Part shown: positions 1,576 through 15,465 of the stretch, one piece after another | Layout: each line of letters begins with the position of its first letter | How positions within the stretch are numbered: the first letter of the stretch is position 1 | DNA from: a virus | Lineage: Duplodnaviria; Heunggongvirae; Uroviricota; Caudoviricetes | Virus record (IMG/VR): IMGVR_UViG_2880378312_000013 | Length of the DNA: 54,893 bases | Direction: 5' to 3' (one strand) | The notes under the pieces: model-generated | What the model was told of the DNA's origin: nothing | What the model saw: the letters and a program-made list of their open reading frames with translations, nothing else | Database searches by the model: none | Translations under genes and position numbers: made by a program

Positions 1576-2532
1576 GTGACTAGTTATTCAAACTTTTCCA
1601 ATCAAATAAAAGAAACCATCAATAATAAATTCGATCATGAAATTCATGATTGGGACATTATAAAAAACTCAATCACAACTTTAATAAATAAAAATATCCA
1701 TGGTGCAGGTAGAAATATCGTTGATTTTATAGATTTAGGTAACTGGGATTTTATTTCAAACTTTTCCTTTGATGACTCTACAAGAAGACTTGAATTAGAG
1801 TGGCACCCCAATGATAAATTCCATATATATATTGAGTCCGTTGTGTTTGTCGAGTTTAATGACACTATATATGCTTTCTTAAAGGGATACTATCACAATC
1901 AGTTATCTCTAAATAGAATATATAATACAAAATGCTCTTCATGTTCATTTGAAAACTCAGGTTCTTATATGGTAGACGTTTATAGAACGGTTAAAAGAGT
2001 AAATGAGACAATCCAGACCCCAAATATAAATTGCTATACTACATGTATTTTAACAAGGCCCGCAAATGGTCATGTTACATCTACAGGCTTCTCACGAAAC
2101 CTCATGGATGCGATAAATATTTCATTAGCAGAGCACAAAATAGCCTCTTTACATAATGAAGTCATGAGTATTGAGGAATATGATCGTGATTCTTTACAAG
2201 AGAAAGGAAATACTGCCAGGAGATATTTAGAATATATTCTCATGCTTGTTAATATTCGTATAATGCATTTAAACAACGTTCAATACCAAGAGCAAATGCT
2301 AGGTAGTTTAGTTTCTGTTATTGAGGCTCTGGACTATGAACCATTAATGAAAAATGATGTTGAAATTACAAAGGACATCCTTAATGCTTGCAGCCACCAC
2401 GGGGGGGTTAGAATTGAAAAGAAAGATGTAATTTTTTCTTTGGAAGTTATTGAAAACTTAATTAAAGCCATAAAGAAAACCGACATAAATAAATTACAAC
2501 TCGATGGGATGTTTAAATCAATTCAAAAATAA
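1576..2532 (+). CDS. hypothetical protein, AT-rich orphan ORF (candidate island cargo)
   Basis: 318-aa ORF (GTG start) with strongly AT-biased codon usage unlike flanking genes; sits between the alpha-like primase and the candidate att repeat; no motif recognised. Confidence 0.5.
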   Translation: MTSYSNFSNQIKETINNKFDHEIHDWDIIKNSITTLINKNIHGAGRNIVDFIDLGNWDFISNFSFDDSTRRLELEWHPNDKFHIYIESVVFVEFNDTIYAFLKGYYHNQLSLNRIYNTKCSSCSFENSGSYMVDVYRTVKRVNETIQTPNINCYTTCILTRPANGHVTSTGFSRNLMDAINISLAEHKIASLHNEVMSIEEYDRDSLQEKGNTARRYLEYILMLVNIRIMHLNNVQYQEQMLGSLVSVIEALDYEPLMKNDVEITKDILNACSHHGGVRIEKKDVIFSLEVIENLIKAIKKTDINKLQLDGMFKSIQK

Positions 2533-2664
2533 ACATCATCTAACAATGAATTAGATGCATTTTCCGCTGACGCCTTAGCATATAACTTTTAAATTTTATC
2601 GATATATATTTTGAGATAATTTCCTGTAGCGGATTTAAGACCGGCACAGCCGGTCTTAGGTCAG

Positions 2665-5055
2665 TTATTTCGCTGCAAACTCATCGCATTTTGGCAACCA
2701 GTCAGCATTGCTTTCCTCTCTTAGGGCCAGATTAGTCTGCATTCCTTGATTGGTCCGTCGTTTCTCATACTGCAGCCCATATTCCTTGAGCATTAACGGT
2801 AGCCCCTTGCCAAACATGGTCAGACTGAGCGTATTTTTATAGCCGTTAGCCTCCATGTAGACCAGATAGGCATGGTAGAGGTAAGTTCGAGGCTGACGTG
2901 GAACAATATTAGCGTTCCCCATAAACATGCCCGTGGTGTCAGGTAGGACCTCAAGGTAGCCGCAAAAATCAAAAGCTGAATCAGCATCACGTTTGATGGT
3001 GAGCGCTTCATCGGAGTTCTGCTGTGACTGAAGCAATGTCCTGGCACTCATTGGGTCGCTGAAACGCTGCATAAGCTGGCGAACAATCACCGCTAGCTCA
3101 CTGGCAATTTTCTCTTTGAGCTGGGTATCGCGTTCCTCCGGGGCTATCTGGTCGGGGAAATGCAGGATCACCCTTCGGCGTGAAACTCCACCACTACGAT
3201 CAGTGAAGCGCATCGGATTATTGTTCACAGCCAGGATGACCGCCGGGATGTGGGTTGAATAGGCGTTCTGATATTTGGGATCAACGGATACCGCATCGCC
3301 GCCAGTGATGGCTTTTAGTCCGGCCCCGTCACCGCTCCACTTTTCCTGGTCGGGAAGTCGAATCAGTGAAAAACCTATTAACGCAGCTCGTTCTCTTGGC
3401 GACTCAAGCATTTCAATGGTTGCCGAGGTCGCGTTATCTTCACCCGCCAGCATGGTTGCTATTTCAGCAAGAATACTCTTTCCACTTCCGCCAGGGCCAG
3501 TGACCTCCAGAAACAGCTGCCAGTCATAACGGTTAGCCAGCACCATAAACAATGCAGCCAGAATAATGTCCCGTTTTTCAGGATTAAAACCTGCGGCACG
3601 ATCCAGCCAGCGCCAGAATGCCGGGGCATGGGTTTCCAGTGACTCACCGTCAACGGGCTGCGTGTAATCCACCTCGCACAGCGTACGTAACCAGTGCTTC
3701 TTATCGTGCGGGCTGAACAATCCTGTCCGGGTATCGAGCACACCGTTGCGAAATCCGATAAGTTGCCGCGCCGGATTCTGCTGTTGCGGAACGATCAGTT
3801 TGAGGGTTTCCACGAGAGACGCAATTTTCGCGGATGAAAAAGGTGCGTCGAGGCGCTGAAACAGCGCAGCGACATCACGGGCAAAATCGGCGTAATAGAT
3901 AACTTTCCAGGCCCCCGCCTCATAGCGTGAAAGGAGCTGCCCGTTCGGGTCTACTGCCAGTGAATTTTTATAGTGATCCACTACCCTCTGCGCTTTTTCG
4001 CTGACGCTCAGCGCGGTAAATTCAGCTTCGCTCATTGTGTCGAAGGGGCTGGCAACAGCTGGTTTTATTACTTCATGAATTGCATGCCGGGTGGCTTCTT
4101 CGCCGTTTTGCGTGAATGCATCGTTCCAGTCACCAAACACAGGCGGGAGCGCCATTGTGCAATTGCAGGCCCCGGTAACAGCTGCGCCCCTTGTTTGCCC
4201 CGCACCGTTGAGATCGCGGTCAGCAGCAATAATTATCTGGTGCGTTGGGTACTCACTGCAGGCAATGCTCGCCAGGGAAAGGAAATTGACGGACGAAAAG
4301 GCCACCATGACAGCATCGCCAGTCAGATAGTTGATAGTAAGTGCGGTGGCATATCCTTCCGCTATCCAGAGCCGTTTGGCTGCTTTGGCAGTACCTTCAA
4401 CCAGGTAAAAGGCATTCTTAACCTGACCGCCTTTAAGGAAGCATTTGCCCCCATTAGCGTTGATTAACTGCAGATTTACCAGCTCTCCATCTGCATACAA
4501 TGGAACGACAAGATCTCCCGCGCGAAATGCCACACCACCGACTTTATGCATAGCGGTTAATTCCCGGCAAGGCAGTGCAGGAAACCCTTTACTCGTCAGA
4601 TAGGCATTGCCAGTGGTCTGGCGGGACTTATCAAACAAACGGGCAGCCAGCACTGCTGCAGCTTTTCTCCCGTCCTCTTTTTCAGGAGAACCAGATTCAA
4701 GCATTCCCTGAGATACTGGCAGCAGGTTTCCGATAATGCCGTTTATTCTGTCTGCCGCTTCACTAATGCCTACATCCAGTACTTTACTTACAAGCGCCAG
4801 GCCATCACCTGCCCCGCACTGGTTACAGAACCACGTTCCCCGCCCTTCCTGGTCATCAAATCGAAAGCGGTCTTTCCCGGCACAGACCGGGCAGGGCTGG
4901 TGCCGATTTTTCAGTACATTTACGCCCAGCGCAGGTAAAATTCTTGACCAGTGACCCCGAGCTGCTTTCTCAGCCTGGCTAACTTTCATTCCTGACATTG
5001 TGCGGCCCTCCTTAGTGCAGCGCTGGTTTGTTGAGGTGACGGGAACAAAGTTCAT
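2665..5055 (-). CDS. P4 alpha-like primase/helicase (zinc-binding primase + D5-type NTPase)
   Basis: CxxC...CxxC zinc motif ([10 protein letters not shown]...CNQCGAGDG) and P-loop GPGGSGKS; true start may be the internal Met (MSGMKVSQ) about 57 nt downstream of the ORF start. Confidence 0.8.
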
Positions 5056-7300: not shown

Positions 7301-8053
7301 ATGACAATCCCAGAACAGAACAATAACCCGATCGTTGAAATTTCTATCCCTGTTTCGACGCAACAGGCGCTTGAGAAAGTGAATGCCACCAAATCTGCAT
7401 GGCTTGAAGCACGTCGTCAGCAAAAAGCGGCAGCGGATAATATTGCGACAATCCGCCAGCGCCGCGCTGAAATGGAAGCCACGACGAACGCCCTGAATGA
7501 GGAGTGGCGCACGCTATTTCGTGAAAGTCAGGGCGTAGTCTCAAAGGAAATGAAAAAACTGCGCACGGAAATTGCGCTGGGACGAGAAACGCTTGAGGAT
7601 TTTGATGAGCTGCTGGCGGCTCAGGAAAGCGAAAATGCACTTTTGCCGCAGGAGGCTGCGGAATTAGCCGGAAAGTATATCCACGCGCACGACACCCTTG
7701 TGGGTATTCGCGCAAAACAAATCTGGGAAGATTTTATGCAGTCGCATGGAAAAGCACTAATCCAGACACTAAGCCTGCTCAAATCAACAATGGGCAGGGA
7801 AGCCAGCGCAGTTGTCGGTGTGGTGCATTCAGTTAATGACCCGGACACACTGCTGAAAGATTTTATTCATAAACATATCACCAGACCGGCTCTGACTAAC
7901 GATGCGATGCCCGAACAGGACCCCGTGTTTAAACTGGCGGGAGTTGCCCCGGATTATGCGGCCCGTCTGGATTTCAGTAATAAACTCTCTCCAGCAGCTA
8001 TGCATAAAATGAAGGTTCGTCAGGAACGTGCTGAGAAGGAGAAAGCAGTATGA
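7301..8053 (+). CDS. Sid-like capsid size determination protein (putative)
   Basis: 250-aa helical/coiled-coil protein first in a sid-psu-delta-like operon; similarity to P4 Sid is from recollection only. Confidence 0.45.
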   Translation: MTIPEQNNNPIVEISIPVSTQQALEKVNATKSAWLEARRQQKAAADNIATIRQRRAEMEATTNALNEEWRTLFRESQGVVSKEMKKLRTEIALGRETLEDFDELLAAQESENALLPQEAAELAGKYIHAHDTLVGIRAKQIWEDFMQSHGKALIQTLSLLKSTMGREASAVVGVVHSVNDPDTLLKDFIHKHITRPALTNDAMPEQDPVFKLAGVAPDYAARLDFSNKLSPAAMHKMKVRQERAEKEKAV

Positions 8054-8601
8054 TGGCCCGAGTCACTCCAGACCAAGCGCTTATCAGTTTTAGAAATGCC
8101 CGTATTCTGTGGGCTGGACATAGTGAGAGCCGAAAAGCCGTTGAACAACAGATAGAATCACTCCTCACTGCCATGGAAAAACCAGCAGATTATGCTCGAC
8201 AGCTCGAATTACAGCGGGAACATCTGGATGTGCTGAAATGGCAAATTAACTGTGCTGCGCGCGAATGCATTTACTCGCAGCATCAACTGATGGAGGCCTG
8301 CACAGAAGACGCTCTCAGCAATTTTATGCAGGCGAATGGAGCAGCCCTGACATCTGCACTGGCTCCGTTCCTGAAGGGGCGCGGAGGGGTTGACGTTGCG
8401 TCCCGTATATTACGCAATGCTCTGGTTCGCCAGCTGGCAATAACACCGCCTGAAATTGCCGGGGATTATCGTATGATTCTGGATGAATCCGGTGTGATGC
8501 CTGACCCCATGATGGTTCGTGATTGCCAGAGCTCTTACACCCCTGCACAACAACTGCGCTTTCAGCAACGTCTGGATTACATTAACGGCATGCAGGAGTA
8601 A
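8050..8601 (+). CDS. Psu-like polarity suppression protein (putative)
   Basis: 183 aa, overlaps the upstream gene by 4 nt; segment FMQANGAALTSALAPFL resembles P4 Psu as I recall it. Confidence 0.5.
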   Translation: MMARVTPDQALISFRNARILWAGHSESRKAVEQQIESLLTAMEKPADYARQLELQREHLDVLKWQINCAARECIYSQHQLMEACTEDALSNFMQANGAALTSALAPFLKGRGGVDVASRILRNALVRQLAITPPEIAGDYRMILDESGVMPDPMMVRDCQSSYTPAQQLRFQQRLDYINGMQE

Positions 8602-8606
8602 TATTA

Positions 8607-8879
8607 ATGGCACTTAAATGTCCCGAATGCGGTACGACGGCACACGCCAGAACCTCCGCCTATGAAGCACCATCGGTTAAACGCTCATGGTATCAGTGCC
8701 AGAATCTTGAATGTTCCTACACATTTACCGCACTGGAAAGTGTGGATACGATAATCATGAAGCCCCGGCGCAATGAACAGGAATCAGAGAAAGCACAAAT
8801 GCCGGAAAAACAACAGCAAACTCTCAATCGCTATGGCTCCGCGTCAAAGCTGTCAAGCCGTCAGCAAATTCCTGTCTGA
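8607..8879 (+). CDS. Ogr/Delta-family zinc-finger late-gene activator
   Basis: CPECG...HARTS...YQCQNLECSYTF pattern matches the Ogr/Delta C4 zinc finger. Confidence 0.75.
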   Translation: MALKCPECGTTAHARTSAYEAPSVKRSWYQCQNLECSYTFTALESVDTIIMKPRRNEQESEKAQMPEKQQQTLNRYGSASKLSSRQQIPV

Positions 8880-8927: not shown

Positions 8928-9288
8928 CGCCTTTTCCCTGGCTGGCCTGAGAGCGCATGAGTGCATGTCTATAGCGCATGAAAACGCATGATTCTCATGC
9001 ACCATTTTTGACGCGAAAGCCCTTGTGTGGTGGCTTCTGAGACGATTTGCGGAATGCATGAAAACCAGTCTGTTAAGCGAAGCGAGCAGGCGTGGGGGGC
9101 TGCGCGCGCTAAGGGGTTAGATTATAAAATATCAAACGCCGGTGAGATCCATTATTGTGGAACCACCCGAAGGAAGTGTAGAGGCGAAAGTACCCAAAAT
9201 AATTTTGCAAATTATTTAGAAATGAACTGAGCGCTCGAAACGAAATATAATTTCGAGCACCCCAATTAGCAGTTATATTTTTAATGTA

Positions 9289-9855
9289 TTAAACAGGATA
9301 AAAACCAGAGCTTCCATTCTTATTTAAGTTATGGATTTTATTTGCATCATTAATTTTTATTTGGAACGTCGGACCTTTATTCTCAAGAATTACAATCTGG
9401 AAATTATAGTCCCTTTTGATTAATGCGTGATAAAATGAATCACTGAGACTGACGCTATTAACATCCGATAGAGAACCCCCTCTATCTTTATCAAAGTGCG
9501 TCACTAATGGACTATCAAGCACAACAAATCCAATGAATGGATTCCCTTTTCTTGATAAAAATTCCGCAAAGCAAATGGTAAATATAGCATGCATTACTGC
9601 ACGGGTACCTTTACCAAACATTCCTCGGCGTTTCCCATTGATATTAAAGTCATATGTATCTTCGTCAAATCGCACTTTGTTATCTTTAGAATTTTCAAAA
9701 TTTATATCATTCAAAAAGTCTTGCATCGCTATTTCTATATCATACAAATCAGCTACTGTTAAGGAGTCAAAGTCCTCGGCGGAGTATTTAAGTTCGTCAA
9801 CATCATCTTCTTTATCTTGTAATGAAGATAGAATGCTATGTTTTGTGTGATCCAT
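9289..9855 (-). CDS. C-terminal head segment of an SMC-like ABC ATPase (Walker B-like region)
   Basis: 188 aa; hydrophobic strand followed by Asp (FIGFVVLDSPL) resembling Walker B but without the canonical Glu; start overlaps the upstream stop as TAATG. Confidence 0.55.
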   Translation of the reverse strand: MDHTKHSILSSLQDKEDDVDELKYSAEDFDSLTVADLYDIEIAMQDFLNDINFENSKDNKVRFDEDTYDFNINGKRRGMFGKGTRAVMHAIFTICFAEFLSRKGNPFIGFVVLDSPLVTHFDKDRGGSLSDVNSVSLSDSFYHALIKRDYNFQIVILENKGPTFQIKINDANKIHNLNKNGSSGFYPV

Positions 9856-10445
9856 TAAAAGATTGTCTTTATATTCATAAAGTGATTCAAGAGATGAATG
9901 TATTGTTTTATATTTTTATCTTCTAACGTCTTAAAATCACTTTTTTCTGATTGATAAATTTCATTAACATCATTTTTTCTTAACATAATTAATTCATGTT
10001 CGCGAACATTAGATCCGATTGATTCAATTAATCCTTTCAGCTGGCTTTTGATTTTCAATTTTTCTGCATTACACGACAAAAAACAATCATCATATGATAT
10101 TTCATTTTCTTTTTTTTGCGGTGTATTACAGAACTCACAATAAATATCTGCAAAATTATTTAAATAGAAATTCGCCTGTGATACAACATCTATTCTTTGT
10201 AGATCTATAAAGTATTGGTCTTTAAGAAGACTAAATCTTTCAATGAGTAATGATAAGTATTTTTCCCTGTCACTGATTGAATATAATTCATCACTTAACT
10301 CTTTTAATAATTGCTTCTTATCATCAAGTGCATCAACAATACCTTTCAATATATCTTTCGATGATTCAATATCTTGCTCTACTTTCTCAAGTTCTCTTGA
10401 AACAATGACTTGATCATATTCAGGATAAATTAATTGCGCTTTCAA
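9855..10445 (-). CDS. coiled-coil middle segment of the SMC-like ABC ATPase
   Basis: 196 aa, highly charged heptad-like sequence, TTG start; in the same frame as the upstream ORF and separated from it by a single TAA. Confidence 0.55.
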   Translation of the reverse strand: MKAQLIYPEYDQVIVSRELEKVEQDIESSKDILKGIVDALDDKKQLLKELSDELYSISDREKYLSLLIERFSLLKDQYFIDLQRIDVVSQANFYLNNFADIYCEFCNTPQKKENEISYDDCFLSCNAEKLKIKSQLKGLIESIGSNVREHELIMLRKNDVNEIYQSEKSDFKTLEDKNIKQYIHLLNHFMNIKTIF

Positions 10446-10475
10446 TTCCTCATAAATATTTGCAATTTGATTTTT

Positions 10476-11135
10476 TTAAAAATATCTTGCTTTTTTATTT
10501 GGTTTTTCTGCTAAGGAGTTAGTATCATCTCTCTGAGTTAAAAGGAATTTAAATTCAGACTTTCTTTTTGTCTCCTCGCTAGGAATATCAGAAAGAATTA
10601 ACGACTTCTCAGTTAACACTCTTAATTCATCAATACAAAAAAATTCAAAAACATTATTAAGATTAAATTTATGAAGAGTATTACTTAAGTTTGTTCTTAC
10701 TTTAGCCTCTTTGAAATTCAACCTACCATAAAAGTATGATGAAAAACTCTTTTTAGACGAAGCACTTTTGGAAAAAACCATCAACAGATTAGCTTCACTA
10801 ACATTTTCAATGCTCGAATCATATAATCTGTAATGGGCGCTATCCTGAAGAGACCTCTCAATTGTCATTACCCTACCTTGAAAATTAAATTCCAGATAGG
10901 CTAAATCATAACCTTGAGCATGATCGATATCTTTATTTTTTAGTTTTTCACTCCCTAATAAATATCGAATCAAATAATATATGTATGTTTTTCCAGAGTC
11001 AGAACCACCATATAAAATAGTCAATTTAGAACCAAATTCAATTATAGCATCTAATTTATTGAATCCGGTTACCTTTATTTTTCTGAACGTAAAAAAATTG
11101 TCATTCATAATTAAATTCCATATCATATTTGCCAA
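10476..11135 (-). CDS. N-terminal head segment of the SMC-like ABC ATPase (Walker A)
   Basis: FRKIKVTGFNKLDAIIEFGSKLTILYGGSDSGKTYI matches the N-terminal strand plus P-loop of SMC/Rad50/RecF-like ATPases; likely true start at MNDNFF. Confidence 0.65.
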   Translation of the reverse strand: MANMIWNLIMNDNFFTFRKIKVTGFNKLDAIIEFGSKLTILYGGSDSGKTYIYYLIRYLLGSEKLKNKDIDHAQGYDLAYLEFNFQGRVMTIERSLQDSAHYRLYDSSIENVSEANLLMVFSKSASSKKSFSSYFYGRLNFKEAKVRTNLSNTLHKFNLNNVFEFFCIDELRVLTEKSLILSDIPSEETKRKSEFKFLLTQRDDTNSLAEKPNKKARYF

Positions 11136-11574
11136 TTTTATTTTTTATAATTGATTGCAACTGCTCATCAGGAATATCACTATATAACTTAACCACCAAA
11201 TTTATATTATGCTCCATCTGCGCAACATATTCATTATGTAGAGAATTTGTAAATGCATATGTTTTTTCAGAAGCTTTATATACAAAACCACGATGTGTAT
11301 AAATTTTTGAGGCTAGTTCATAGCCTTGCAACAAAGCCAATGATTCTAAAACAATCTCTCGTTTTAGGGCTAACTGAGCATCTCTACGGGGTATTGGAGG
11401 ATGAAGACTAATCTCTTCAGGTAAAAAATCCTTAAGATTTACTAAAATAAAATCAAAACAAATAAGCCGTTCAAGGCTTAATGAAGAAGGATAAATAGCG
11501 ACGAGCACTTTCGCCATTCGACATGCCACTTCTAAACTTGAATTATAAATTCTAACCATTATCTCACCGTCCAA
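11101..11574 (-). CDS. small helical protein, candidate middle component of a three-gene defence cassette
   Basis: 157 aa, TTG start, overlaps both neighbours; position matches LmuC/ABC-3C middle components. Confidence 0.45.
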   Translation of the reverse strand: MDGEIMVRIYNSSLEVACRMAKVLVAIYPSSLSLERLICFDFILVNLKDFLPEEISLHPPIPRRDAQLALKREIVLESLALLQGYELASKIYTHRGFVYKASEKTYAFTNSLHNEYVAQMEHNINLVVKLYSDIPDEQLQSIIKNKIGKYDMEFNYE

Positions 11575-12176
11575 ATTACTTCACCATCATTAACCAAATG
11601 ATGGCATATTCCTTTTTTATCATTTGCTTCACATATTTTTGATAGTACTGAATGTGCAATTGGTGTCAGAACAGCCTGCTTCAAGACTGCATTACACCTA
11701 ATAAATGCATAATTATGGTCTTCATAAAAGACGGGTTCAATTGAAGATGAAATGTAACATTTCAATGCTTTGAATACATCATCTTTAAATACTTCGCGGA
11801 CAAAAACCTCAAGCGAAGATGCAAAATAAAAATCATTTCTACTATTATTAAAGTGTCGTCTGTATGGATCATCAAGCTCTAAGAAAGAACTATAAGTTTT
11901 ATTTCCATGCTCTGAATAGGCTTGAAGCAGTGCATTAACATATACAGACTCTTTTTTTGAATTGTATGTTGGAATTTCATTTGGAGGGATTCTCACGACA
12001 TACAGCTCGTTAAAGTACTTAAAATAAAGGTGTGTATTTGCAATATCATTTAAAATCAATGATAAGGGTAGAGAGTAAAAAATACTAAAATCAAAATCCT
12101 CAATATATTTTTTTATTTCATCATCTAATGGAATATCAATCTTTTTAGTTATTTTTTTGAAATTGCTGAATCCCAT
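11559..12176 (-). CDS. C-terminal part of the candidate effector protein (frameshifted relative to the upstream ORF)
   Basis: 205 aa; overlaps the upstream ORF by 28 nt in another frame across an A7 tract. Confidence 0.5.
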   Translation of the reverse strand: MGFSNFKKITKKIDIPLDDEIKKYIEDFDFSIFYSLPLSLILNDIANTHLYFKYFNELYVVRIPPNEIPTYNSKKESVYVNALLQAYSEHGNKTYSSFLELDDPYRRHFNNSRNDFYFASSLEVFVREVFKDDVFKALKCYISSSIEPVFYEDHNYAFIRCNAVLKQAVLTPIAHSVLSKICEANDKKGICHHLVNDGEVIWTVR

Positions 12177-12565
12177 GAATCAAGGACTGCTTTTTTAAGC
12201 TCGTTTTTATTTTTCAATAAATTAGAAAATGTAGTAGATAAATCATAGGGTGCCACAAAAAAGTACTTCTGAGGGATGGGATAATCACCATTCAGAGTAA
12301 AATAGATAAGTTTTCCAAACTCAACTACAACATCAGAGAACCCTAAACTTTTTTTGTACAGTTTGCATTGATAATTATCCCAAGAATAACCTTCTACGTT
12401 AGGATCCGATTTATATCCAACAACGTCTCTACCTTTATCTCCAGCTCCTCCCAAACGTTCGCTCCACGGGTAATCATCTGATTTACAGACAATAAGCCAA
12501 TCATGGACAAATACCTCCCATTGTTCATCATCCCATGTCAATATTTCCGAAAGTGGTTGAGACAC
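12149..12565 (-). CDS. N-terminal part of the candidate effector, PD-(D/E)xK / Mrr-like nuclease-fold motifs
   Basis: 138 aa, GTG start; GAGDKGRDVVGY followed by YQCK resembles the D...(E/Q)xK core of restriction-endonuclease-like folds; assignment is tentative. Confidence 0.45.
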   Translation of the reverse strand: MSQPLSEILTWDDEQWEVFVHDWLIVCKSDDYPWSERLGGAGDKGRDVVGYKSDPNVEGYSWDNYQCKLYKKSLGFSDVVVEFGKLIYFTLNGDYPIPQKYFFVAPYDLSTTFSNLLKNKNELKKAVLDSWDSAISKK

Positions 12566-12568
12566 AAA

Positions 12569-13801
12569 TTAACTCCTTTTTAGTCTTTCAAATATCAAAT
12601 TACTGTACCAGTCCATCATAGACTTCCTTCCACTAAAATATTGAGCATGGTTATAAGTCCCCCTAATAGAATTTTTATCTACATGAGCCAACTGGATTTC
12701 AATCCAAGCACTCTCAAAACCTTGCTCATGCAGGATTGTAGAAAGGGTATGACGAAAACCATGTCCAGTGACTTTTCCTCCATACCCAATACGCTTAATG
12801 GCTTGATTTATACTCGCTTCGCTCATTGGCCTATTCGGATCGTTCCGCCCTGGAAAAACATAACGATAGTTCCCTGTCATGATCTTGAGTTCATTGAGTA
12901 AATCTACCGCTTGAGATGATAAGGGCACAAGATGTGGCCTACGCATTTTCATCCTTTCAGCAGGAATTTCCCAAATAGCGTTATCCAGATCAAATTCTTG
13001 CCATAATGCCGCGCGTAATTCGATGGTTCTCACACCCGTAATCATCAGTAATTTCGTGGCTATCTGGACAAGCTTACTCCCGGAGTAACCCTCTAAGGCA
13101 CGTAGAAAATCAGGTATCTCATCAGCTTTTAGGAATGGGAAATGATTGGATTGGTGTACTTCGAGAGCGCTGGAGAGATCAGCCGCAGGATTGTACTCCG
13201 CCCTACCCGTTGCAATTGCGTAGCGAAACACTTCGGAGCAACGCTGCCGCACTTTGCGCATTTTCTCCAACGCACCACGTTTCTCAATTTTACGCAGAAC
13301 GTTCAGCAGCTCTAGCGGTTTAATCTCTCCCACAGGCCTTGTTCCGACATAAGGAAAAATGTCGTTCTTAAACGCTTCCATGATGTCTGATGCATATCCC
13401 GCCGACCATTTAGCAGATTTAAGTTGATGCCACTCTCTGGCTATCTTTTCGAAGGCGTTCTCTGACTCTGTTTGCATAGCTAGCTTTTGCTCTTTTCGAA
13501 CCTCACTAGGGTTCTTTCCTTCTGCCACAAGTTTTCGAGCTTCATCACGACGGGAACGAGCATCGGCAAGGGTGATCGTTGGGTAAACACCAAGCGAGAT
13601 CATTTTGGGTTTGCCGGCATAGCGATAGCGGAACCGCCAACTCTTGCTTCCATTAGGTTCTATAAGTAATGACAACCCTAGCCCATCTCCAAATGTATAG
13701 GCTTTAGCTTCAGGCTTAGCGCGGCGAATCTGCATATCGTTTAAAGGCATGTGTATAGGAATCCAGACCGAACAGGAACATATACACAATCCTATACACA
13801 T
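12569..13801 (-). CDS. P4-type tyrosine integrase
   Basis: 410-aa ORF with C-terminal catalytic region (HGFRHT...Y); sits next to the partial tRNA-Thr repeat, co-oriented with it; probable start at MPLNDMQ. Confidence 0.9.
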   Translation of the reverse strand: MCIGLCICSCSVWIPIHMPLNDMQIRRAKPEAKAYTFGDGLGLSLLIEPNGSKSWRFRYRYAGKPKMISLGVYPTITLADARSRRDEARKLVAEGKNPSEVRKEQKLAMQTESENAFEKIAREWHQLKSAKWSAGYASDIMEAFKNDIFPYVGTRPVGEIKPLELLNVLRKIEKRGALEKMRKVRQRCSEVFRYAIATGRAEYNPAADLSSALEVHQSNHFPFLKADEIPDFLRALEGYSGSKLVQIATKLLMITGVRTIELRAALWQEFDLDNAIWEIPAERMKMRRPHLVPLSSQAVDLLNELKIMTGNYRYVFPGRNDPNRPMSEASINQAIKRIGYGGKVTGHGFRHTLSTILHEQGFESAWIEIQLAHVDKNSIRGTYNHAQYFSGRKSMMDWYSNLIFERLKRS

Positions 13802-13912
13802 TCAGTACCGGATTCTACTGGATGGTTACGGACTACTATGGACTTAAAAGAATAAAAAATGTTATAAATCAGAGATTTTATGGACTAATACGGACGTTTG
13901 AGGAAGTTGAGA

Positions 13913-13958
13913 TGGTGCCGATAATAGGAGTCGAACCTACGACCTTCGCATTACGAAT
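13913..13958 (-). repeat. 46-bp direct repeat of the thrW 3' end (att site shared by both elements)
   Basis: tggtgccgataataggagtcgaacctacgaccttcgcattacgaat is identical to the 3' part of the intact tRNA-Thr at 53450-53495, then diverges. Confidence 0.8.
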
Positions 13959-14233
13959 TATAAGAATCCGCTTCTAATTCAAAGCATTACCCCATCAACA
14001 CTGCGCTCACACGTCCCACCACATCAAAACATGTAAAGCCTTGCAAGCCATTGCGAGGCCTTATGTGTCTCAGTTTTGTCCCACCTTGTATTACGACTTG
14101 CATAGCCAATGAAGATAAACGTGACGACAAACGGCGCAGCAGTCTTCTTTTCTTTCACGACTTCTCCAGCATGCATACCTTTCTGCCATGACTGAAGTGA
14201 ATGCCTGTTATGAGCGAGGATTGGCCCAGATGA

Positions 14234-14671
14234 ATCGCCCTGGACTGTTGCGATCGTGAAGCCATAGACTGGGCCGCAAGCACGGGAGGTTACGATAAAG
14301 CGACAGTGCAGGATGTCATGTTAGGAGCGATAGAAAAACGCTTTGGCGATAAAGTACCGGAACAGTCCATCCAGTGGCTGACAGATAACGGTTCAGCGTA
14401 TAGAGCGCATGAAACACGGCAGTTCGCCAGAGAGTTGAATCTGGAGCCCTGCACAACGGCAATCAGCAGTCCTCAGAGTAATGGAATTGCAGAAAGGTTC
14501 GTGAAAACGATGAAGGAAGACTATATCGCGTTCATGCCGAAACCGAATGTAAGAACGGCATTGCATAATCTTGCAGTGGCGATCGAACATTACAATGAAA
14601 ACCATCCGCACAGTGCGTTGGGTTATCGCTCTCCGCGAGAATATCGACGTCAGCGGGTAACGTTAACTTAA
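14234..14671 (+). pseudogene. IS2-like (IS3 family) transposase orfB remnant
   Basis: Translation [23 protein letters not shown]...[14 protein letters not shown]...[14 protein letters not shown] matches the integrase-core C-terminus of IS2 InsD as I recall it; in-frame stop upstream and no orfA. Confidence 0.6.
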
Positions 14672-14712
14672 GATACACCCCCTGTCTGGAAATAAGGGGG
14701 CAAGAACAATGA

Positions 14713-15465
14713 TCAGATTCCCTGGTGAGTAAGAATTTTACTTTCTGAACTCCTCTGAGAGTATTGACTTGGAGAAACACCAAAATAACGTCTAAATACA
14801 TAAGTAAAGTATGAGACACTGGCATAACCACAGACCTTAGCTACTTTACTAATAGGATAACAACGAGTGCTGAGTAAATATTCAGCCATTTGCATCCTCT
14901 CATCAAGTATGATCTTACTGAATGATACCCCCTCTTCTTTCAATTTCCTCTTTAGTAAACTTTCGCTGAGATATAATCTTGATGATATATCCTTAAGACG
15001 CCATGGTGCAGATAAATCCGTATGAATAATCGTTTTAACTTTAGCCCCTGTGCTTTTCAAACATCCAAACAGAAATACTCCAAATTGTTTTTCAGAAGAA
15101 AATGCAGAGAGACATGTAAAAGCAATAGACTCATCAAAAATTTCTATGTATTCAGCACAGTGATTAGCCCAACTAATTAATCCTTTAATTAAACTGAAGT
15201 CAGCAAAGTTTATTTTTAAATAAGATGGATATTCCCTACAATCAGAAATATCCCTTAAGTTATTAGCTTTCAAATAGCGACTAATAAACTCAGCGCCAAA
15301 ATCCGCCACTATCACTCTTTCAGGATATGTCAGGAAAAAATCTCTAGAGCTAGAGTCGACAAGTACAGATGAACCTCTCTCCAGAAACACACTCTCTTTT
15401 CCGAAATAAACATCAAAGGACTCCAAAATCAATATAACTGAACATGTAGTTGCCATATCATCCAC
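14713..15465 (-). CDS. AraC-family transcriptional regulator
   Basis: 250 aa, C-terminal AraC-type HTH (ISKVAKVCGYASVSYFTYVFRRYFGVSPSQY); gene is markedly AT-rich. Confidence 0.8.
   Translation of the reverse strand: MDDMATTCSVILILESFDVYFGKESVFLERGSSVLVDSSSRDFFLTYPERVIVADFGAEFISRYLKANNLRDISDCREYPSYLKINFADFSLIKGLISWANHCAEYIEIFDESIAFTCLSAFSSEKQFGVFLFGCLKSTGAKVKTIIHTDLSAPWRLKDISSRLYLSESLLKRKLKEEGVSFSKIILDERMQMAEYLLSTRCYPISKVAKVCGYASVSYFTYVFRRYFGVSPSQYSQRSSESKILTHQGI

Follow-up and report, generated by a model that had tools for sequence, protein, structure and literature searches.

The minus strand of this locus carries two open reading frames, ORFs 10476-11135 and 9855-10445, that lie in a common frame. 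The locus raises the question of whether they are two genes or one gene interrupted by a TAA codon, and of whether such a TAA is a mutation or an error of sequencing. All positions given here are those of the window, by which we mean the whole stretch of 54,893 nucleotides analysed. The reading that we favour, with a probability of roughly 95%, is that a nonsense TAA lies in lmuB, a gene of a Lamassu cassette carried by the P4-like satellite Sp2, and that it is a later lesion in a pseudogene that was already inactive.

The TAA codon and the lmuB reading frame

Translation of 11135..9855 in a single frame yields one internal stop only (...KKARYF*KNQIANIYEELKAQL...). The initial annotation had described a single in-frame TAA splitting an SMC-like ATPase gene, and this description is borne out. 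The stretch 10500..10440 of the minus strand reads ...AAA GCA AGA TAT TTT TAA AAA AAT CAA..., ending ...GAG GAA TTG AAA..., and the three bases of the stop (T at 10478, A at 10477, A at 10476) are located at the junction of a T5 run with an A7 run. Ten sense codons (KNQIANIYEE) separate the TAA from the TTG at 10445..10443, where the downstream ORF had been said to begin. This TTG is indeed the first possible start past the TAA under a mechanical ORF rule, but it is merely an internal Leu codon of lmuB. The true start of lmuB is the ATG at 11108..11106 (MNDNFF...) and not the TTG at 11135, in agreement with both the orthologues and RefSeq.

The same annotation took the two ORFs for one long gene rather than two, and orthologous cassettes do encode a single protein of 606 aa. 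The proposal was nevertheless incomplete, as the next ORF (9289-9855), which had been missed, also belongs to the gene. Taken together, the three ORFs span single 606-aa proteins from one end to the other in alignment, so that their belonging together is not a matter of chance. When the three ORFs were fused and used as a query, 23 homologues of 594-612 aa were retrieved, each covering 96-99% of the query. The best were those of Proteus mirabilis (P0001, 606 aa, 86% identity) and Pantoea alhagi (P0002, 606 aa, 73%). Two single-nucleotide repairs are sufficient to restore an lmuB ORF of 606 aa that is 87.8% identical to Proteus LmuB. On these alignments the gene comes in three pieces, not two, as follows.

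9289..11108, minus strand: whole lmuB pseudogene, 1820 nt, SMC/Rad50-like ABC ATPase of Lamassu
10479..11108, minus strand: lmuB fragment 1, codons 1-210, N-terminal ATPase head (Pfam AAA_23, 2.2e-7)
10476..10478, minus strand: in-frame TAA nonsense codon, codon 211 of lmuB, ancestral state TTA (Leu); junction residues YF-x-KNQIANIYEELK
9855..10475, minus strand: lmuB fragment 2, predicted coiled-coil arm, in the same frame as fragment 1, ending at the TAA 9857..9855
9289..9912, minus strand: lmuB fragment 3, read in the -1 frame and encoding the C-terminal ATPase head; ATG 9855 is the start given in the ORF list

Fragment 1 (ORF 10476-11135) contains a Walker A motif, GGSDSGKT, at residues 34-41, which fits Gx4GK[ST]; its Pfam matches to AAA_15 and SMC_N are weaker than that to AAA_23. 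Fragment 2 contains a CxxC zinc-hook motif, CEFC, at residues 324-327, and is out of frame downstream of 9913. The Walker B motif, FVVLDS, corresponds to residues 528-533 of the repaired LmuB and is carried by ORF 9289-9855. Fragments 1 and 3 match the N- and C-terminal parts, respectively, of the PADLOC LmuB model PDLC03863, fragment 3 mapping to positions 428-608 of the 610-position model; in Pfam, fragment 3 shows a weak match to DUF3732. The frame of fragment 3 is open 5' of ATG 9855 (KYKTIHSSLESLYEYKDNLLM), and the residues encoded there match the orthologues.

The existing annotations of this gene differ. In RefSeq, Sakai positions 313449-315268 (window 9289-11108) are a single pseudogene, ECs_0293, 'AAA family ATPase'. 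PGAP gives three CDSs of 210, 196 and 188 aa in EDL933 and most other strains; fragment 1 is the RefSeq CDS WP_000999326.1, 'AAA family ATPase'. The three CDSs could be taken to represent two or three separate functional genes, that is, a naturally split LmuB whose parts assemble into the ATPase. The TAATG stop/start overlap at which the second and third ORFs (9855-10445 and 9289-9855) meet resembles translational coupling and would agree with such an arrangement. However, all 23 full-length homologues are single ORFs, none of them encoded as two proteins divided at the stop, and E. coli strains of the ancestral type lack the stop altogether. Moreover, the 20 codons upstream of ATG 9855 (KYKTIHSSLESLYEYKDNLL) align with orthologue residues in the C-terminal frame, so this ATG is internal and the TAATG overlap fortuitous. 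Finally, the middle piece possesses no start other than the internal TTG, and the further breaks in the gene differ between lineages. We therefore regard a natural split as very improbable and retain the reading of one lmuB gene.

Origin of the TAA in the O55:H7/O157:H7 lineage

Over the 3.4 kb of 9200-12600, the window shows 100% identity to E. coli O157:H7 Sakai, to EDL933 and to hundreds of further O157:H7 chromosomes. This region occurs in 305 of the 5,426 complete E. coli genomes compared (306 records), always with at least 99% identity. Of the 305 records, 292 carry an exact copy of the 71-mer centred on the TAA; the other 13 deviate from it. Twelve of these 13 are named here: ten O55:H7-type records (CB9615, RM12579, DEC5A/B/D/E, TB182A, USDA5905, 2013C-4465 and FDAARGOS_946), the O157 strain 493/89 and the O157:H7 strain LSU61. 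Base-by-base alignment places a T at 10477, hence TTA, in five strains (O55:H7 CB9615, O55:H7 RM12579, 2013C-4465, 493/89 and LSU61) and an A in the window and in Sakai; the other seven records were assigned to TTA through their common 71-mer class. Strain 493/89 has fragments 1 and 2 joined in a continuous ORF of 417 aa that runs across codon 211. Under the stepwise-emergence model, we take these TTA strains to be ancestral or early-branching members of the O55:H7-to-O157:H7 lineage.

The initial annotation had asked whether orthologous cassettes carry a sense codon at the stop, and the alignments confirm that they do. The orthologues read ...ARYFLKNQI..., with Leu in place of the stop. Proteus uses TTA for codon 211 and Pantoea CTG, and all 19 homologues aligned have L211. 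A Leu codon in the orthologues, together with TTA in the closest E. coli relatives, marks the TAA as a true nonsense mutation, a T-to-A transversion that turned Leu211 from TTA into TAA and the tract from T6A6 into T5A7. On the records compared, the TAA is a derived, inherited state fixed within a lineage and carried by 292 of the 305 cassette-bearing records. The TTA/TAA difference at 10477 separates these 292 records from the twelve TTA records and may serve as a lineage marker.

Two explanations of the stop had originally been offered side by side, and only the nonsense mutation survives. The other, a sequencing or assembly error in a genome that really has a sense codon, seems to us next to impossible. 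The T5A7 homopolymer junction is the kind of context that is error-prone in some sequencing chemistries. However, the change is a substitution and not a change in run length, and the TTA allele occurs only in the O55:H7 strains, in 493/89 and in LSU61, which is the pattern of an inherited allele. The identical 71-mer in the 292 records, obtained in many laboratories and on many platforms, excludes a sequencing error.

Older frameshifts and decay of the cassette

The nonsense mutation is accompanied by two further lesions, one in lmuB and one in its partner gene lmuA.

9913..9917, minus strand: A5 homopolymer with one base missing, -1 frameshift at lmuB codon 398; junction residues TLEDKKYKTIH
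11559..12565, minus strand: lmuA pseudogene, N-terminal effector domain and CTD6, 335 aa if intact
12152..12158, minus strand: A7 run in lmuA with a -1 frameshift, zero frame TC A_AAA_AAA TAA; junction residues AISKKITKKIDIPL

At the lmuB site the window reads GAT AAAAA TAT, compared with GGT AAA AAA TAT in Proteus, the run being six bases long in the orthologues. This gap is the only indel between the window and either the Proteus or the Pantoea gene over 1821 nt. A search with the repaired A6 sequence found an exact match in none of the 305 E. coli records, so that the frameshift at 9913-9917 is common to every E. coli copy examined and predates the TAA. The lmuB gene was therefore already broken when the TAA arose. 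The lmuA gene of the window lacks one base relative to the uninterrupted 1008-nt ORFs of Proteus and Pantoea, and is split into ORFs 12149-12565 and 11559-12176, which overlap by 28 nt. Identity over this frameshift region (12120-12195) is 99% or more in every one of the 305 E. coli records. Both frameshifts are common to every cassette record, and the TAA came later. The lmuA frameshift had also escaped the initial annotation.

Decay of the cassette has gone further in individual strains, through independent lesions of the kind to be expected once selection is relaxed. The T7 run at 10637-10643 has become T8 in CB9615 and 2013C-4465, and the A6 run at 9941-9946 is A5 in the aligned O55:H7-type strains and A7 in LSU61. 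An IS1203 element is inserted in lmuB fragment 1 in three O157:H7 strains, and a deletion joins LmuC to the middle LmuB fragment in P0024.

The recurrence of these lesions in homopolymers bears on the idea of programmed recoding, in which stop-codon readthrough, or slippage of the ribosome or during transcription at T5A7, would produce full-length LmuB, possibly serving regulation or phase variation. The stop does lie within homopolymers, and all indel lesions of the cassette lie in A/T runs of at least 5 bases. In addition, the base lost from lmuA leaves A_AAA_AAA directly before a TAA; this is a canonical -1 slippery heptamer and, if used, would be expected to restore full-length LmuA. However, slippage offers no way past a TAA that lies in frame, and after a +1 or -1 shift here stops follow within a few codons. 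The stop and its context are not conserved either, the orthologues and the ancestral-type E. coli strains having Leu codons. Full-length LmuB would require readthrough at codon 211 plus a -1 shift at the A5 run (U AAA AAU), which is non-canonical. Finally, a run of 5-7 bases is on the short side for phase variation, and the changes are fixed within lineages. We consider recoding of lmuB highly unlikely and retain the nonsense mutation as the explanation of the stop. It is conceivable, though improbable, that the A_AAA_AAA-TAA sequence in lmuA still permits low-level -1 frameshifting to full-length LmuA.

The time scale of the inactivation was approached through substitutions polarised with Pantoea. 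The E. coli branch shows 38 synonymous and 11 non-synonymous changes, compared with 36 and 17 on the Proteus branch; one codon was mis-repaired in the sequence used for these counts. The comparison indicates that purifying selection acted over most of the E. coli branch, and that the inactivation is recent on that time scale. Taken alone, branch counts no worse than those of Proteus are compatible with residual function. Two other observations speak against a full loss: lmuC is undamaged, and each of the three LmuB fragments retains a long open frame.

The head of an ABC/SMC ATPase consists of an N-terminal half with Walker A and a C-terminal half with Walker B, which must join through the coiled coil. 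The lmuB gene encodes the SMC/Rad50-like ATPase sensor of the Lamassu cassette. The TAA cuts this protein after the Walker A head, at codon 211, and the second cut, before the Walker B head at codon 398, detaches its C-terminal head. LmuA is split between its effector domain and CTD6. Since LmuB is cut at codons 211 and 398 and LmuA is split, we infer from the lesions that the system is probably non-functional. It would have been inactive before the TAA arose, the frameshifts in lmuB and lmuA having come first. The TAA would thus be a late, selectively neutral lesion rather than the event that killed the system.

Systems of the Lamassu/DdmABC type act against plasmids and replicating phages. 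It is conceivable, though we think it improbable, that inactivation of the cassette was adaptive in the common ancestor of O55:H7 and O157:H7. If the cassette had such activity, its loss could have eased the uptake of plasmids and of the unusually large load of lambdoid prophages, including Stx prophages.

The Lamassu cassette, its satellite and known systems

The cassette and the flanking genes of the satellite are arranged as follows, together with lmuB and lmuA described above.

11101..11559, minus strand: lmuC, ABC-3C middle component 2, 152 aa, apparently intact (PF20288 MC2, 6e-30, in ORF 11101-11574; also annotated in RefSeq)
12569..13750, minus strand: P4-type tyrosine integrase (intS), bordering the hotspot; gene order the same in Pantoea
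8607-8879, plus strand: ogr/delta, P4-like core
8050-8601, plus strand: psu, P4-like core; flank the same in Pantoea (L010/L011)
7301-8053, plus strand: sid-like gene, P4-like core, on the other side of the hotspot

Judged by its protein models and gene order, the cassette is predicted to be a short three-gene Lamassu (ABC-3C) defence system of the order lmuA-lmuC-lmuB. The intact orthologues, with LmuA of 335, LmuC of 152 and LmuB of 606 aa in both Proteus and Pantoea, match the corresponding PADLOC models: Proteus P0001 matches LmuB model PDLC03863 at 3.4e-117 (protein 6-605, model 3-608 of 610), Pantoea LmuA matches PDLC03852 at 5.7e-85 over its full length, and the Pantoea LmuC orthologue matches PDLC03871 at 5.4e-35, also over its full length. 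In the window, CTD6 (PF20282) is found at 7.7e-30 in ORF 11559-12176. The N-terminal fragment of LmuA shows Mrr_cat at a sub-threshold E value of 0.2 in Pfam, and a D47...Q66-x-K68 motif was read there by eye.

None of the three intact proteins was matched by any NCBIfam model, and a PDB search at the phmmer level with intact LmuB and LmuA retrieved no similar solved chain. A profile of 19 LmuB sequences gave weak matches to SMC/Rad50 heads in the PDB (E about 0.003-0.008), which fit the fold class and are no help in deciding membership of the family. Short Lamassu systems are described as having a Walker A of the form Gx4GK[ST], a Walker B of the form hhhhD[Q/S/T/E] in the C-terminal head and an LmuB of about 600 aa whose coiled coil is short and may or may not bear a CxxC zinc hook (PMC12663957). 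The cassette has Walker A, an hhhhDS Walker B, CxxC, an LmuB of this size, an adjacent LmuC and an LmuA in which an N-terminal effector domain is fused to a CTD.

In Sakai, the region falls inside 'prophage Sp2, P4-like phage' (RefSeq), together with int, ogr/delta, psu and the capsid-size-determination gene. The cassette lies between the integrase and the delta/psu genes, which is the cargo hotspot of the satellite. The cassette has 28-34% GC and its flanks about 50%, a difference that swapped-in cargo would be expected to show. A search of 13000-15000 for a tRNA gene beside the integrase was negative.

Part of this picture is already known: the gene family has been described, the genome is a reference genome and one RefSeq annotation carries the pseudogene flag. 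The locus is an ordinary pseudogene. A literature search on the old locus tags (ECs0293-0295, Z0312/Z0313) found nothing on the gene. The present analysis adds what the codon originally was and in which lineage it was altered, where exactly the frameshifts lie and in what order the events occurred, as well as the pseudogene status of lmuA and the assignment of the cassette to Lamassu. The result bears chiefly on annotation. In most O157:H7 genomes, what PGAP presents as an 'AAA family ATPase', two 'hypothetical proteins' and two LmuA pieces would really be two pseudogenes of one dead Lamassu, and censuses of defence systems in EHEC should not count the cassette as functional.

According to a 2026 survey, less than 1% of the pseudogenes of P4-like satellites are recognisable as defence genes, so that such cases are rare (PMC13586616). 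The present locus offers a documented case of a defence system decayed in place in a P4-like hotspot. Compared with other cargo of such hotspots, this cassette has decayed in place in every O55:H7/O157:H7 record that carries it. It is a modestly unusual, but not surprising, example of decayed defence cargo.

The closest known relatives of the cassette differ in their surroundings. In Pantoea alhagi (CP019706, L010/L011) the context is P4-like, as in the window, with the order int, cassette, delta/psu/sid-like. In contrast, the Proteus mirabilis locus (L008/L009) lacks delta and psu and has an integrase fragment at its far end. Both cassettes, unlike that of the window, carry a sense codon at position 211 and no frameshifts.

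In the Lamassu systems studied so far, an LmuB dimer and LmuC (LmuB2-LmuC) hold monomeric LmuA and sense DNA ends or phage replication, upon which LmuA is released and oligomerises into an active nuclease (PMC12663957). The present cassette resembles DdmABC of Vibrio cholerae (Lamassu Vc-Cap4) in its gene set and order (lmuA, lmuC, lmuB), in its Walker motifs and in its single CxxC, and departs from it in an effector that is not Cap4-like by Pfam. Unlike a working Lamassu, the copy in the window carries a nonsense mutation and two frameshifts that disable it.

The second lesion in lmuB and other changes in the gene

The in-frame TAA at codon 211 of lmuB, the SMC/Rad50-like ATPase gene of the Lamassu cassette, is not the only lesion in this gene. 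A second one affects the C-terminal head.

9913-9917, minus strand: -1 frameshift in lmuB at an A5 run; separates ORF 9289-9855, the C-terminal head with Walker B, from the rest of the gene

This frameshift is older than the TAA, and the repaired 9913-9917 sequence was matched by no E. coli record. The TAATG overlap at 9853-9857, 'coupling'-like in appearance, is fortuitous.

Further changes in lmuB were observed among lineages. The T7 run at 10637-10643 is T8 in CB9615 and 2013C-4465, and the A6 run at 9941-9946 is A5 in the aligned O55:H7-type strains and A7 in LSU61. All indels of the cassette are located in A/T runs that are 5 bases long or longer. Besides the substitution at 10477 that created the TAA, only one lmuB substitution sets the window and Sakai apart from all five early-branching strains aligned: position 9826, the third position of codon 10 of ORF 9289-9855, is T in the former and C in the latter. 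Moreover, the N-terminal lmuB fragment is interrupted by IS1203, an IS3-family element, in three O157:H7 strains (M1300706002, 6535NalR and 6535WT).

2275-3488 of locus L012 (O157:H7 M1300706002): IS1203 insertion in the N-terminal lmuB fragment

Finally, protein P0024 (344 aa, from Logan assemblies) corresponds to a deletion variant where the first ~137 residues of LmuC continue in frame into the middle lmuB fragment. In window terms, about 11140 is joined to about 10470, with loss of the first lmuB fragment and of the TAA. The junction (...SIIKN|QIANIY...) is located at a short A-rich stretch common to lmuC and lmuB.

Composition, copies and surroundings of Sp2

The GC content of the Lamassu cassette (window 9500-12500) is 28-34%, compared to about 45-50% in the adjoining P4-like core genes, which fits horizontally transferred cargo. 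In the E. coli complete-genome collection, the region is present twice in one genome, and one of its matches falls on a record that bears a plasmid label. In the same collection, the 71-mer centred on the stop revealed 13 records that differ from the window, 12 of which were identified.

No tRNA gene was found beside the integrase gene in window 13000-15000. Two features lie beyond the integrase.

14306-14671: ORF, IS3-family transposase fragment (partial ISEc48 in the Sakai annotation)
14713-15465: transcription-regulator gene

Their Sakai counterparts are part of the adjacent lambda-like prophage Sp1. Therefore Sp2 abuts another prophage.

The lmuA effector gene

The effector gene lmuA, whose intact product has 335 residues, is also split by a frameshift, common to all E. 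coli records carrying the cassette (305/305).

12152-12158, minus strand: -1 frameshift at an A7 run, splitting lmuA into two ORFs (12149-12565 and 11559-12176)

In the zero frame the mutated gene reads TC A_AAA_AAA TAA, a canonical -1 slippery heptamer immediately followed by a stop. A -1 shift at this predicted slippery site would yield exactly full-length LmuA. A Pfam search with the N-terminal domain (12149-12565, minus strand) gave no significant match, with only a sub-threshold hit to Mrr_cat (E=0.2). This domain carries a D47...Q66-x-K68 motif, which at the sequence level suggests a PD-(D/E)xK nuclease.
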